Shown here: positions 2,189 to 24,522 of the stretch, piece by piece
Layout of the letters: every line of letters begins with the position of its first letter
How positions within the stretch are numbered: position 1 is the stretch's first letter
Source: a virus
DNA length: 28,179 bases
Direction: 5' to 3' (one strand)
Virus genome (UHGV): UHGV-0383551
Position numbers and translations under genes: made by a program
Notes under the pieces: generated by a model
Database searches by the model: none
What the model saw: only the letters and a program-made list of their open reading frames with translations
What the model was told of the DNA's origin: nothing

Positions 2189-2205
2189 ATTACCTTTCGG
2201 GTAAT
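2189..2205. promoter_or_regulatory. Inverted-repeat operator-like motif ATTACC-TTTCG-GGTAAT (copy 1 of 4)
   Basis: Read directly from the sequence. Sits in the divergent intergenic region between the tailspike start (2085, minus) and the small plus-strand gene (2281). Confidence 0.6.
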
Positions 2206-2280: not shown

Positions 2281-2538
2281 ATGCAGCAGTATCACTATCC
2301 ACTGGAAGACGGATTTACCGAAAGGATTCACACGCCGGGAGGCGTCAGGTCACTGGTGGAGGGATCGCACTTGATGAAATTACTCCGGGATCTCGATAAG
2401 GATGGATTTAATGTCGATGGCCCACTTGCCGAACTGACTGCACTGATTAACTACGTCACCAGCTCACAGATGTCTATGCAGGATCTACAAACACATCTCG
2501 ACTATTGTGCCGAACAATTACGAAAACAAACCAGATAA
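2281..2538 (+). CDS. Small (85 aa) LexA-controlled protein, paralogous to the C-terminal domain of the downstream Bro-N antirepressor; candidate SOS-inducible antirepressor (Tum/Gifsy-antirepressor-like logic)
   Basis: ORF with GGAG 8 nt upstream of the ATG and a LexA box immediately upstream. Residues GVRSLVEGSHLMKLLRDLDKDGFNVDGPLAELTALINYVTS...DLQTH align by eye with SGVLGLTENSLLMNLLNQLQEDGHDVSGAAAELTTMFCYIVG...DIQTH at the C-terminus of the 2851-3537 protein. Confidence 0.6.
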   Translation: MQQYHYPLEDGFTERIHTPGGVRSLVEGSHLMKLLRDLDKDGFNVDGPLAELTALINYVTSSQMSMQDLQTHLDYCAEQLRKQTR

Positions 2539-2568: not shown

Positions 2569-2585
2569 TTTACCTTTGCGGTAAA
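2569..2585. promoter_or_regulatory. Inverted-repeat motif TTTACC-TTTGC-GGTAAA (copy 2 of 4), nested inside a longer inverted repeat GGAGTGC...GCACTCC (2558-2600)
   Basis: Read directly from the sequence; lies between the small SOS gene and the antirepressor gene. Confidence 0.55.
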
Positions 2586-2850: not shown

Positions 2851-3537
2851 ATGACTGCTAACGTAACCCCATCTGTTTTTCATTTTGAATCAGAAGCAAC
2901 CATTCGAGCCATTGTTATTGATGGAAATCCTTGGTTTGTTGCCAAAGACGTTATTAAAGCTCTTCAACTGACAAACCCCACTATGTCAATAAAATCTCTT
3001 GATGATGATGAAAGGGCTAAATTTAACTTAGGCCGTCAAGGCGAAACCAATATTATCAACGAGTCAGGCCTCTACACACTGTTCCTCCGCTGCCGCGATG
3101 CGGTGACACCAGGCACTACCCCCTACCGCTTTCGTAAATGGGTTACAGGTGAGGTTCTTCCTCAGATCCGCCGCACCGGAAGCTACATTAAAAACTCGCT
3201 CCCGCAGGAAGAACGCATAAAGATGGTTGCCGACCAGGTAGCCAACGCCACGGCGTCAGCAGTAATGCAGGCGATGAAGATAGAGAACAAAACCTACAGC
3301 GCCCCGCTGAAGCCCGGCTACCGCAGTTTGATTCACTCGCCGTCTGGTGTTCTCGGCCTGACGGAGAACTCACTGCTGATGAATCTGCTGAACCAGTTAC
3401 AGGAAGACGGGCACGACGTATCGGGCGCGGCGGCGGAACTGACCACCATGTTCTGCTACATCGTCGGTGTGAGTAAATGCCTGCGTGATATCCAGACCCA
3501 CGCGGAATACATCAACGACAAGGCAGGGGTCTTCTGA
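2851..3537 (+). CDS. Phage antirepressor with N-terminal Bro-N domain (228 aa from ATG 2851; the track ORF begins further upstream at 2698)
   Basis: The internal ATG at 2851 has AAGGTG 8 nt upstream. The N-terminus SVFHFESEATIRAIVIDGNPWFVAKDVIKALQL...GLYTLFLRCRDAVTPGTTPYRFRKWVTGEVLPQIRRTGSY matches my memory of the Bro-N/AntA domain pattern. The C-terminal domain is paralogous to the 2281-2538 product. Confidence 0.75.
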   Translation: MTANVTPSVFHFESEATIRAIVIDGNPWFVAKDVIKALQLTNPTMSIKSLDDDERAKFNLGRQGETNIINESGLYTLFLRCRDAVTPGTTPYRFRKWVTGEVLPQIRRTGSYIKNSLPQEERIKMVADQVANATASAVMQAMKIENKTYSAPLKPGYRSLIHSPSGVLGLTENSLLMNLLNQLQEDGHDVSGAAAELTTMFCYIVGVSKCLRDIQTHAEYINDKAGVF

Positions 3538-3602
3538 CAGAACGGCGGCACAGGGATGTGCCTTTAAATAATTCTGTACAGATTGCAGGTGAATAGCGTA
3601 CT

Positions 3603-3618
3603 ATTACCCCAAAGGTAA
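3603..3618. promoter_or_regulatory. Inverted-repeat motif ATTACC-CCAAA-GGTAA (copy 3 of 4), about 120 bp upstream of the two-gene cassette
   Basis: Read directly from the sequence. Confidence 0.55.
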
Positions 3619-3735
3619 GAAAGTTGATTTGTAACATTTTAGTTTGTAGTTACCGTGATGGTTTTGCTGCAGAAAGTTAACTAGTCAAAATCACACCGTA
3701 TGTAAGTCACGTCTGTTCCCGTATGGGAGGATGAT

Positions 3736-3954
3736 ATGTTTAAATTTGATATGCAACTCAACCAAAACTATGCCTCTTTTTACCATCCAGAAACTGGTAA
3801 AGCTGTTTTCGTTGACTCTTTCGATAATGAAGAATTTGATATCAGAATTGGGACCCTACGCCAAAGTAAGCATGTTGCTACTGTACGTGCATCCAATGAT
3901 GATGAATTAAATCAAAAAATAAGTGAGGCGACCTCCCGTTATCTATGTCTATAA
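3736..3954 (+). CDS. Hypothetical protein, 72 aa; first gene of an AT-rich two-gene accessory cassette
   Basis: ORF with a strong Shine-Dalgarno (GGGAGG 7 nt upstream). Overlaps the next gene by 10 nt. I recognise no domain. Confidence 0.55.
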   Translation: MFKFDMQLNQNYASFYHPETGKAVFVDSFDNEEFDIRIGTLRQSKHVATVRASNDDELNQKISEATSRYLCL

Positions 3955-4322
3955 CAGAACAACAACTCATTGATCTTGAGGATGAGATTAACGAGATCTT
4001 GCAAGAAGATGCGGCAAGAATTCACTTTTCATTTCACGCAGCATATGAACGCCTGAACGACGAGAGGAACAAACCGCCAATTACTCTTGCTGAGCTTGAA
4101 GATGTGTTTAAATCGTTTATATCTGCACATCTGCAGACTGTTTTGGATTTTGCTGAAGGTACAACTTTCACCATAAAGTGCAACAAAAGCGCCCTTCATT
4201 TTCCTTGCGCCATTGTACACGAAAGAGAGTTTGGGAAAACGTGGGTTATCCAAAACGTCATTACAGCCATGAGGAAAGTGGGATTCAAGTCTAAAGATTC
4301 TATTATCCTCGAAGTTAATTAA
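3945..4322 (+). CDS. Hypothetical protein, 125 aa, with an acidic N-terminal segment; second gene of the cassette
   Basis: The ATG at 3945 overlaps the stop of the upstream gene, suggesting translational coupling. An intrinsic terminator follows directly. I recognise no domain. Confidence 0.55.
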   Translation: MSITEQQLIDLEDEINEILQEDAARIHFSFHAAYERLNDERNKPPITLAELEDVFKSFISAHLQTVLDFAEGTTFTIKCNKSALHFPCAIVHEREFGKTWVIQNVITAMRKVGFKSKDSIILEVN

Positions 4323-4343
4323 GCCCGCACTGAGGGCTTTTTT
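4322..4343 (+). terminator. Intrinsic terminator (AGCCC-GCACTGA-GGGCT followed by TTTTT)
   Basis: Hairpin plus T-tract immediately after the stop codon at 4320-4322. Confidence 0.65.
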
Positions 4344-4415
4344 ATGGACGAAACAAAAGTCAGTGCTACACTCATTGACGCCACATTGAGGTGGCTTATA
4401 GATGGAAATTTCACA

Positions 4416-4577
4416 ATGAAAAAAGCATTTGCTGCACTGTTCGTTTTGTTGTCTCTGGTAGCTTCAACTCAGGCCTTTGCCGGTCGTTGTCAGCACGACA
4501 GCGACACTGCTGCTGACGGCTCCCGCTGCGGTGGGCGTTCTGCGGATTCCCGCCCGGGTGGCGGTGGCATTCGTTAA
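4416..4577 (+). CDS. Possible small secreted peptide (53 aa precursor) with a signal-peptide-like N-terminus MKKAFAALFVLLSLVASTQAFA and a Gly/Arg/Cys-containing mature part
   Basis: Internal ATG of track ORF 4344-4577. Very typical signal peptide with an AxA cleavage motif, but the RBS is weak and the ORF overlaps other open frames in a GC-rich stretch. Confidence 0.3.
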   Translation: MKKAFAALFVLLSLVASTQAFAGRCQHDSDTAADGSRCGGRSADSRPGGGGIR

Positions 4578-4600: not shown

Positions 4601-4612
4601 GTGACATGTCAC
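4601..4612. repeat. 12-bp perfect palindrome GTGACATGTCAC (copy 1 of 3)
   Basis: Read directly. Its TCA triplet supplies the TGA stop of the minus-strand lipoprotein gene. Confidence 0.6.
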
Positions 4613-4989
4613 GCAACGCAATTATTACCGCGCCATGTAACATTTTTAATAATCTTATCAGCACCAAACTCAACGTAAACAGAGCAACTGAAATGGAGTG
4701 TATAACCGCCATCAGTTGTTGCGTATGTGTTTGAATATATAGTATTACCAATTAGATTAGACGTAGTATTATACGTTGTGGTTTGTGGTACGTTATAACT
4801 ACCAGAGCTTGAGTAAACATACACTCTGTTTCCATCTGGAGATGTAAGCTCTCCCTGAGGATACCCCCACTGCTGAACCATTGCGTCTATACTCTGCCCG
4901 CGCCACGTAAGCATATTTCTTTCAAACTGTGCAGCTGACTGGCATCCAACGAGAAGCATAAATCCAAAAATCAAAAATACTTTTCTCAT
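4609..4989 (-). CDS. Predicted lipoprotein (126 aa from ATG 4989), signal peptide MRKVFLIFGFMLLVGC with lipobox LVGC
   Basis: The internal ATG has AGGGG about 6 nt upstream; the track ORF starts at GTG 5025. Classic lipoprotein signal and lipobox cysteine. Last gene of the minus-strand late operon. Confidence 0.6.
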   Translation of the reverse strand: MRKVFLIFGFMLLVGCQSAAQFERNMLTWRGQSIDAMVQQWGYPQGELTSPDGNRVYVYSSSGSYNVPQTTTYNTTSNLIGNTIYSNTYATTDGGYTLHFSCSVYVEFGADKIIKNVTWRGNNCVA

Positions 4990-5074
4990 AATTACCCCTA
5001 TCATGGAAAAACAGCACCAATCCACAAATTAACTAGTTATTTTATTATTCTTCCGAACAATACAATTCCGAATA

Positions 5075-21283: not shown

Positions 21284-21299
21284 ATTACCTTTCAGGTAA
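21284..21299. promoter_or_regulatory. Inverted-repeat motif ATTACC-TTTCA-GGTAA (copy 4 of 4)
   Basis: Read directly from the sequence; about 90-105 bp upstream of the minus-strand ORF start at 21194. Confidence 0.55.
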
Positions 21300-23819: not shown

Positions 23820-24412
23820 TGATTACCATCCTGACGTTCTTTGAGTCGCTTCCTGGCTGCTGCTATGCGATCAGCAATTGTCACATTCACATTAACATCC
23901 AGACGTTCTTTGAACGCGTTGACATCAACATGCTTACCAATCAGCTCAAGGTTCTTCACCTTGTCAGGCCATTTAATTTTTTTGAGGATTGTCTCTATCG
24001 AATCCTCGTTCATGTTCATGATGGTCGATGACAGATCAAAGCCACTAAGCGTAGTGCGCCAGATTTTCGGCCACTCACGGATTGGTTTAAGGCTCCCATC
24101 GTCGTTGAGGATGTCGATCACGTCCATCTGGTCGATCTGCACCAGGCGCATGAGAACGTAATCAGCACTGACGCGCATTCGTTTGTTGCGCTCCTCCATC
24201 AACTCGGCAATCCGTTTTTGAATGCGTTCATCGCGCATCATGACACTGGCTTTAACTGCCGCTGTATTTGGGGAGAATCCTGCGTTAATCGCTGCCTGAG
24301 TCTGGTTTTCAGGCGTTTTGATGTATGACTGGCAATAAGCCTCCTGCATTGCTGTTAGTGGCTTAAATTGCGTTGATTTGCGTTTATAGGTTTTAGGTTC
24401 AGCAGGCATCAT
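23816..24412 (-). CDS. Terminase small subunit (about 198 aa from the ATG-ATG at 24412; the track ORF extends to 24490)
   Basis: Segment KPLTAMQEAYCQSYIKTPENQTQAAINAGFSPNTAAVKASVMMRDERIQKRIAELMEE resembles phage small terminase subunits, and the gene sits directly upstream of the large subunit. The internal start has a GGTGG RBS; the longer start would run through the intergenic repeats. Confidence 0.7.
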   Translation of the reverse strand: MMPAEPKTYKRKSTQFKPLTAMQEAYCQSYIKTPENQTQAAINAGFSPNTAAVKASVMMRDERIQKRIAELMEERNKRMRVSADYVLMRLVQIDQMDVIDILNDDGSLKPIREWPKIWRTTLSGFDLSSTIMNMNEDSIETILKKIKWPDKVKNLELIGKHVDVNAFKERLDVNVNVTIADRIAAARKRLKERQDGNQ

Positions 24413-24420
24413 AACCACCG

Positions 24421-24452
24421 TGGTAATAGTTACCGTTTTGGTAATAGTACCA
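24421..24452. repeat. Tandem copies of TGGTAATAGT (24421-24430 and 24439-24448), each within a GGTAA...TACC inverted repeat, immediately upstream of the small terminase start
   Basis: Read directly. A 10-mer repeated within 30 bp is not statistically striking alone; noted because of its position and because it shares GGTAA/TTACC half-sites with the ATTACC-N5-GGTAA motif. Confidence 0.35.
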
Positions 24453-24454
24453 TG

Positions 24455-24481
24455 CAAAATAAAGCCGCCATAGTTGGCGGC
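24455..24481 (-). terminator. Intrinsic terminator separating the early block from the terminase genes (GCCGCCA-ACTA-TGGCGGC followed by TTTATTTTG on the minus strand)
   Basis: 7-bp GC-rich stem and U-rich tract in minus-strand orientation. Confidence 0.6.
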
Positions 24482-24522
24482 AGTATTCAAAACCCATCAA
24501 ATTCATCATGCATAATCTACTC

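Follow-up and report, generated by a model that had tools for sequence, protein, structure and literature searches.

The window analyzed here is the whole 28,179-nucleotide stretch of the virus genome UHGV-0383551, and the element of interest within it is a cassette of two small plus-strand genes, referred to below as gene A (72 amino acids) and gene B (125 amino acids). An original prediction, made from the DNA letters alone, had singled out this cassette as an undescribed accessory unit, and the physical features it listed are present. Both open reading frames (ORFs) exist and overlap by 10 nucleotides, the GGGAGG ribosome-binding site (RBS) lies 5 nucleotides upstream of the gene A ATG, and a copy of an ATTACC-N5-GGTAA motif is found further upstream. 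Where a terminator had been placed at 4322-4343, a terminator scan recovers a hairpin at 4321-4339 followed by a T-run (feature coordinates are collected in Table 1). The cassette had also been described as visibly AT-rich, and the calculation agrees, with 38.8% GC in the cassette, 48.9% over the window as a whole and 50.4% in the virion genes; GC content at third codon positions is 0.28 in gene A and 0.40 in gene B.

Over the region from 3540 to 4400, the window shows 100% identity with both Escherichia phage Phi05_1387 B and a prophage of E. coli Es_ST80_L1, and 99% identity with a prophage of enterotoxigenic E. coli H10407. Annotation of a prophage that is identical over the cassette confirms its proposed location, with the genes for internal virion proteins on one side and that for the endosialidase tailspike on the other, and places it antisense to both. 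This prophage is annotated as adjoining guaA, the attachment site of phiV10/epsilon15-like phages, genus Uetakevirus (PMC9782041). As suggested by its description as an undescribed unit, neither protein is represented in Pfam, NCBIfam, PADLOC or the sequences of the Protein Data Bank (PDB), PHROGs places A and B only in families of unknown function, and a literature search returned nothing relevant on the two RefSeq proteins or on RegB-like prophage toxins. The two ORFs are nonetheless not chance readings of the sequence, an explanation that was rejected given their conservation across orders of Proteobacteria and the confident structure models obtained for both.

B-type domains are numerous, with the B profile matching 693 representative clusters at E<=1e-3. 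The distant members are domains of ~118 amino acids that occur as stand-alone proteins or as N-terminal, C-terminal or central parts of larger ones, often together with cytidylyltransferase-like, DUF5824 or Zeta-toxin/AAA_33 kinase-like domains, and these proteins match PHROG phage families. Across 50 diverse B domains, which are 23-44% identical to the B protein of the window, six residues are invariant (H31, R36, R41, E50, T107 and R110) and six more are nearly so (N38, D39, N42, P87, M109 and K111); the window B has all of the latter as well. An invariant histidine and glutamate accompanied by several arginines make up the usual catalytic set of metal-independent ribonucleases (RNases) such as RNase T1, barnase and YoeB, and the match of B to this set favors its being an endoribonuclease. 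The distant domains retain the same invariant residues with no A gene nearby; A would therefore not be needed for the activity of B and is more likely to be its regulator or inhibitor.

The predicted structure of B points in the same direction. An AlphaFold2 model built from the diverse B alignment has a predicted local distance difference test score (pLDDT) of 97.0 and a predicted template modeling score (pTM) of 0.89, and consists of an N-terminal helix followed by a strand, two helices, three strands and a last short strand. This predicted topology resembles the RelE-like core with an additional N-terminal helix that characterizes the RegB family. The best structural match of the model is RegB of phage T4, and RegB, RelE and HigB all rank above every ParE. 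The original prediction had held that nothing in the sequence identifies a mechanism; the fold and the invariant residues of B now point to an endoribonuclease.

Several further observations concern the wider B family. B-type domains are also found in phage proteins of 200-1100 amino acids together with DUF3008, PAP2, HNH or GNAT domains. Distant B-type genes are often followed by a gene of ~150 codons whose product has a DGHHR motif and a weak ParB_N match; this downstream gene was considered as a conserved inhibitor of the distant domains and rejected, since it has only the weak ParB_N match and is not A-like. A 5704-amino-acid protein with nine apparent B stretches was likewise set aside as a compositional artefact because it does not match the deeper profile. 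A Pfam scan of 50 B-family members yielded scattered chance matches only.

The protein encoded by gene A is compact and acidic. It matches phrog_14630, a search with it reaches 308 clusters at E<=0.1, and the family shares an invariant VDSFDNxEF motif. Its AlphaFold2 model (pLDDT 91.6) comprises four beta strands and a C-terminal helix, and weak fold matches include the immunity proteins TriX and TriTu. In 23 of 23 pairs A is acidic, with a mean isoelectric point (pI) of 4.7. Searches of A against Pfam, NCBIfam and PADLOC gave no match, and both the comparison of its deep-alignment profile with PDB sequences and a Pfam scan of 65 A-family members returned chance matches only.

Genes A and B travel as a unit, and the pair stays adjacent in unrelated prophages and in bacterial chromosomes. 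In a scan of viral contigs with a close B alignment, A lies directly upstream in all 33 viral loci whose B is >=38% identical. Conversely, 19 of the 21 genomic loci fetched via A alone have B directly downstream, and 15 of these 19 B genes are intact. Where the pair has decayed, the loss is uneven: among the 21 loci, B is truncated, split or internally deleted beside an intact A in three, both genes are broken in one, and an orphan A is kept in two. Such an asymmetry of orphan A and decayed B would be expected if A were both harmless and protective and B harmful. The opposite assignment, with A as the toxin, was rejected, as A survives alone and B is the partner that decays. The junction between the two genes varies among homologs from a 41-nucleotide overlap to a 9-nucleotide gap, and this arrangement, in which a pair of small neighboring genes is read in the same direction within one operon and with closely coupled frames, is the layout of a type II toxin-antitoxin (TA) system. 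The ratio of nonsynonymous to synonymous substitution between homologs was uninformative, with synonymous sites saturated and a single pair giving a value (0.11). In one side case, a 132-amino-acid protein on a short metagenomic contig (P0191) joins an A-like C-terminal part in frame with a B-like protein, which reflects either a genuine A-B fusion or an error of sequencing or assembly; a genuine fusion would speak for direct interaction between A and B.

Close homologs of the pair are found in E. coli, Enterobacter, Salmonella and Pantoea and are very common in Klebsiella, whose version is present on >1000 contigs. Uetakevirus-type prophages of both E. coli and Klebsiella carry A-B, and in Klebsiella the pair sits in the same position after the Bro-N gene in prophages with differing tailspikes. 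Its hosts include podo-, sipho- and myovirus-type prophages, among them a siphovirus-type prophage of Chromobacterium, where the pair follows an ANT anti-repressor gene and B is not called as a gene, and a prophage of Pantoea dispersa with baseplate genes nearby. The pair also occupies chromosomal locations outside phages in Pantoea allii, Simiduia agarivorans and marine metagenome-assembled genomes. A GGAG-type RBS precedes A in nearly all homologous loci.

Within the E. coli phages, the cassette is one of several cargoes of a defined slot. The window was aligned with E. coli CE10, phage TL-2011b and a Klebsiella prophage, all of which carry different genes at the cargo position. Upstream, similarity extends over the hairpin behind the Bro-N gene, the promoter-like region and the motif, and ends directly after GGTAAG; downstream, in all three relatives, it restarts exactly at the terminator stem AGCCCGC. 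These two breaks therefore bound the cargo at ~3620-4320. The operator and terminator that the original prediction had credited to the cassette itself lie in flanks conserved among related phages with quite different cargo, and are thus features of the slot. The higher AT content relative to the flanking genes, which had been taken as consistent with separate acquisition, and the position in a variable island are both borne out. The cassette has the attributes of a phage moron, being optional among relatives, deviant in GC content, antisense to late genes, and bracketed by a promoter region and operator on one side and a terminator on the other, all three of which are parts of the slot.

The flanks of the slot occur in 464 of 5426 complete E. 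coli genomes, and only four of these 464 carry A-B as cargo. At least four other cargoes have been found in the slot, namely one 210-amino-acid protein without a family and three small gene pairs. One of these pairs encodes proteins of 62 and 110 amino acids, and the other two have a YafO-family toxin as the larger member; two of the three pairs overlap and one has a single-base gap. None of these cargoes has a match in PADLOC. Toxin-like cargo thus seems to accumulate at this slot as at a hotspot.

The expression signals of the slot differ in detail between its carriers. In relatives without a 7-bp deletion the putative slot promoter reads TTGCAG-N17-TACTAT, and in Klebsiella TTGCAA-N17-TATATT; a promoter scan called the Klebsiella version and scored the E. 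coli versions below its threshold. The A-B-bearing E. coli phages (the window and H10407) lack 7 bp, GACTGGG, that are found in CE10 and TL-2011b (window 3583-3604), which turns TTGCAG-N17-TACTAT into TTGCAG-N10-TACTAT. This deletion probably weakens the promoter, and it may be an adaptation to toxic cargo. The hairpin behind the Bro-N stop codon is kept in CE10, TL-2011b and H10407, and Klebsiella has a version of it with compensating changes; it was not called by the terminator scan and may act as a weak terminator that parts two transcription units. The terminator behind the cargo is kept as AGCCCGC..GCGGGCTTTTTT in CE10, TL-2011b, H10407 and Klebsiella.

The motif upstream of the cassette recurs throughout the phage. 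The window holds six palindromic sites (12 strand matches), starting at 2189, 2569, 3603, 21284, 24411 and 24429, versus 0.32 matches expected; none of 100 shuffles had as many matches as the window. In the whole prophage (NZ_CP031215.1 5004000-5046000), TTACC-N5-GGTAA occurs 16 times versus 0.76 expected, and all sites are promoter-proximal. They lie upstream of the integrase gene, as two sites on each side of an HTH_3 repressor gene, upstream of the block that follows the replication genes, and in front of the A-B cassette and of the genes for terminase, portal, tailspike and Bro-N. Judging by this distribution, the motif is probably the operator of a phage regulator, most likely of the prophage repressor, in which case the regulation of the cargo is tied to that of the phage. 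Among the upstream regions of homologous loci, the motif is absent outside this phage group, and a literature search found no description of it as an operator of the epsilon15 group.

The prophage repressor (WP_000836293; 7422-8006 of the NZ_CP031215.1 5004000-5046000 extract) has an HTH_3 domain and lacks an S24 peptidase domain, which fits induction via the Bro-N anti-repressor rather than RecA-mediated self-cleavage; a Bro-N homolog in phage ZX5 functions as an anti-repressor (PMC9782041). Upstream of the Bro-N gene, the 85-amino-acid product of the gene at 2281-2538 shares its PHROG matches (phrog_450 and phrog_15539) with the C-terminal portion of the anti-repressor. It is therefore a separate copy of the anti-repressor C-terminal domain, with its own operator site at 2189. 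On the minus strand, the small terminase gene is given a TTG start at 24490 both in the ORF list and by the Prokaryotic Genome Annotation Pipeline (PGAP). In the stretch 24390-24490 (-), a hairpin resembling a terminator and a tandem pair of operator sites are accompanied by a GGTGG RBS and an ATG near 24408, and this ATG, ~27 codons further in, is probably the true start of the gene. Two small envelope-type genes lie 3' of the slot: the conserved 53-amino-acid protein (4416-4577, +) has an N-terminal hydrophobic segment and a Cys/Gly-rich tail, and the gene at 4609-5025 on the minus strand encodes a lipoprotein-like protein with an LVGC lipobox (phrog_3716), in whose place relatives carry other genes.

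Table 1. Features of the A-B cassette, its slot and the recurrent operator-like motif. Positions refer to the window unless stated otherwise.
Feature	Coordinates	Strand	Basis or remark
GGGAGG Shine-Dalgarno sequence of gene A	3725..3730	+	read from sequence
Gene A, proposed inhibitor (antidote) of B	3736..3954	+	ORF; phrog_14630
Gene B, predicted RelE/RegB-fold domain, proposed endoribonuclease toxin	3945..4322	+	ORF
Exchangeable cargo (5' leader, gene A, gene B)	3620..4320	+	alignment breaks versus CE10 and TL-2011b; 38.8% GC
Bro-N anti-repressor gene, left slot neighbor, outside cargo	2851..3537	+	Pfam Bro-N E 5.8e-19; PHROG anti-repressor Ant; PGAP
Hairpin GGCAC-N6-GTGCC followed by TTTAAATAATT, directly 3' of Bro-N stop	3547..3562	+	read from sequence
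Putative slot promoter TGTACA-N18-TACTAT, weak (8/12 matches)	3575..3604	+	inferred from alignment
Palindromic operator-like ATTACC-N5-GGTAA, overlapping end of putative -10	3603..3618	.	slot/prophage feature, not cargo
Intrinsic terminator-like hairpin and T-run, slot feature	4321..4345	+	scan; common to other cargoes
Gene for 53-amino-acid membrane-anchored protein WP_000708858, right slot neighbor, conserved	4416..4577	+	annotation; phrog_14503
Other slot cargoes (coordinates in extracted loci)	L001 3143-3775; L002 3144-3843; L123 1603-2125; L124 1877-2702
Motif copy	2189..2204	.	upstream of 85-amino-acid gene 2281..2538
Motif copy, 1 mismatch	2569..2584	.	directly after promoter-like TTGCAA-N17-TATATT, upstream of Bro-N gene
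Motif copy	21284..21299	.	upstream of minus-strand small-gene and portal operon
Two tandem motif copies	24411..24444	.	after hairpin, directly 5' of RBS and ATG

Taken together, the obligate pairing, the mobility of the pair as a unit, its asymmetric decay, the catalytic-looking residues of B and the YafO pairs in the same slot favor reading A-B as a toxin and its antidote. We put at roughly 50% the probability that the cassette encodes a RelE/RegB-type RNase toxin together with a dedicated protein inhibitor under prophage control; the activity of B as an RNase, its inhibition by A, control by the repressor and any phenotype are what we infer. In the proposed mechanism, B would be a small endoribonuclease of the RelE/RegB structural superfamily in which His31 and Glu50 serve as the acid-base pair and Arg36, Arg41, Arg110 and Lys111 bind RNA phosphate. 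A would be translated first, with translation of B coupled to it through the 10-nucleotide overlap, and the compact acidic A protein would bind B directly and block it. The slot supplies the promoter region, the TTACC-N5-GGTAA operator and the terminator, and expression would probably follow the state of the prophage repressor and anti-repressor. Should the supply of A fail, or B be overproduced, cleavage of RNA by B would lead to cell arrest. Possible outcomes are stabilization of the prophage, abortive infection of a competitor, or a RegB-like role in the phage's own program.

Several results weigh against this reading. Foldseek finds nothing significant for the B model in the PDB, no Pfam or NCBIfam family reaches significance for B in scans to E<=1, and the B deep-alignment profile gives only chance matches against PDB sequences, among which RegB (2hx6) does not appear at E<=10. 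No sequence-level link connects B to any RelE, ParE or RegB family, and hhalign assigns a probability of 2.5% to the comparison of the B-family profile with a four-sequence RegB alignment. That non-significant alignment sets H31...R36 of B against H48...R52 of RegB, and the B position aligned with RegB His68, the second catalytic histidine of the T4 enzyme, is not conserved. With a pI of 5.2, B of E. coli is an acidic protein, an unusual property in a toxin that binds RNA; the pI of B ranges from 5 to 9.8 across 23 pairs, and among the distant B-type domains the median is 9.2. Gene A, for its part, encodes none of the ribbon-helix-helix, helix-turn-helix, AbrB or Phd/YefM DNA-binding domains typical of type II antitoxins, and autoregulation of the pair is therefore unlikely. 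Finally, the earlier idea of a defense system finds no counterpart in PADLOC-DB v2, where A, B and the two downstream genes match no family at E<=1.

The resemblance to RegB also allows for a different role, which we consider unlikely though it survives best among the alternatives: B could be a phage-development RNase that, like RegB in T4, cuts host or early phage mRNAs once the phage is induced or has infected a cell, with A restraining or delaying it and the pair having no part in addiction or defense. T4 RegB being the best structural match of B agrees with this, as do the inhibitor-free B-type domains that are common in phage proteins also matching PHROG cytidyltransferase families. The cassette promoter further shares its operator with the terminase, portal, tailspike and anti-repressor promoters, suggesting expression on derepression and not in the lysogen, and a review of T4 raises a possible anti-RegB partner (PMC3014915). 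However, the intact pair is also present at chromosomal sites with no phage genes nearby, and an optional cargo carried by four of the 464 complete E. coli genomes with the slot cannot be essential for the phage to grow. The existence of A genes without B and of decayed B genes also fits a toxin and its antidote better.

Rather less probable is a B protein that is no nuclease but an RNA-, ribosome- or nucleotide-binding or regulatory module that works with A, for example in anti-defense or host modulation, and whose likeness to RelE reflects a shared small alpha/beta architecture. The fusion of B-type domains to cytidylyltransferase-like, Zeta-toxin/AAA_33 kinase-like, PAP2 and GNAT domains could indicate ligand binding, and the acidity of the E. 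coli protein would suit such a role. Yet a histidine, a glutamate, a threonine and three arginines that are invariant across such divergent domains resemble an active site and not a binding surface, and the pattern of orphan A and decayed B implies a harmful B. That B is a ParE-like poison of DNA gyrase with A as its antitoxin seems very improbable, since RegB, RelE and HigB outrank every ParE structurally, B has no match to Pfam ParE_toxin, and ParE toxins are not known to have the conserved His/Glu/Arg catalytic set that B possesses.

If B is an RNase toxin and A its inhibitor, the pair would resemble several known systems without coinciding with any of them. T4 RegB (PDB 2hx6) resembles B in predicted fold only, with no significant sequence similarity, and B conserves no residue equivalent to His68. 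The T4 enzyme is a basic protein of 153 amino acids without a known inhibitor gene, whereas B has 125 amino acids, is always accompanied by A, and is found both in temperate phages and on chromosomes. RegB is reported to cleave GGAG in Shine-Dalgarno regions and to be stimulated by ribosomal protein S1 (PMC1702504). As pure speculation, a B protein sharing this GGAG specificity would make the operon self-limiting through the GGAG RBS of A. In comparison with type II TA systems (RelBE, HigBA, YefM-YoeB, DinJ-YafQ and ParDE), B has no Pfam RelE, ParE, HigB, YoeB or YafQ match, A is a folded beta-sheet-plus-helix protein without a DNA-binding domain, and the promoter and operator are supplied by the slot. 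In its proposed mode of action A-B would be akin to a RelE-superfamily TA system, from which it departs in two respects: B belongs to no curated toxin family, and A has no DNA-binding domain.

The YafO-toxin pairs of the slot (TL-2011b gp45/gp44 and E. coli MS 196-1) occupy the same position between the same operator and terminator brackets, and like A-B consist of a small gene followed by an overlapping larger one. Their sequences are unrelated to A-B, and Pfam YafO_toxin matches them (26.3 bits) but not B. A partial parallel also exists with polymorphic toxin-immunity pairs such as Rhs TreX-TriX and CdiA-CT/CdiI, in that B-type domains are often C-terminal in large multidomain proteins and A likewise looks like an inhibitor that is folded and does not bind DNA. 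In polymorphic toxins, however, the toxin domain ends a large delivery protein and the immunity gene follows directly, whereas here the putative inhibitor A comes first; the window B stands alone, and the fused forms of B have no A-like neighbor. A domain scan of the fused B-type proteins saw no secretion or delivery domains.

The A-B finding changes no major concept. The chances seem even that A-B adds to the RelE/RegB group a toxin family and an antidote fold that are both new, the concept of such a pair being itself familiar. A broader proposal, to which we assign only a small chance, is that B belongs to a large unnamed family of RegB-like RNases (~700 representative clusters) that phages either fuse without an inhibitor into large multidomain proteins or, as in temperate phages and chromosomes, pair with the acidic A; A would then be the first protein of an 'anti-RegB' type, and the pair in this prophage, unlike self-regulated TA systems, would be an RNase switch gated by the prophage repressor through the TTACC-N5-GGTAA operator and would fire at induction or infection. 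Under the toxin-antidote reading, the prophage-wide operator would offer a testable model for the silencing of all promoters in this phage group, that of the cargo included. If the toxin-antidote reading is true, a new toxin family and an antidote fold, both hitherto labeled hypothetical proteins despite being common, would join the RelE/RegB RNases, and the isolated RegB enzyme of T4 would be linked to a far wider set of phage domains. The phiV10/epsilon15-like phages would then possess a defined cargo slot that exchanges RNase-type toxin pairs between a fixed operator and terminator, which would be useful for finding more accessory systems.
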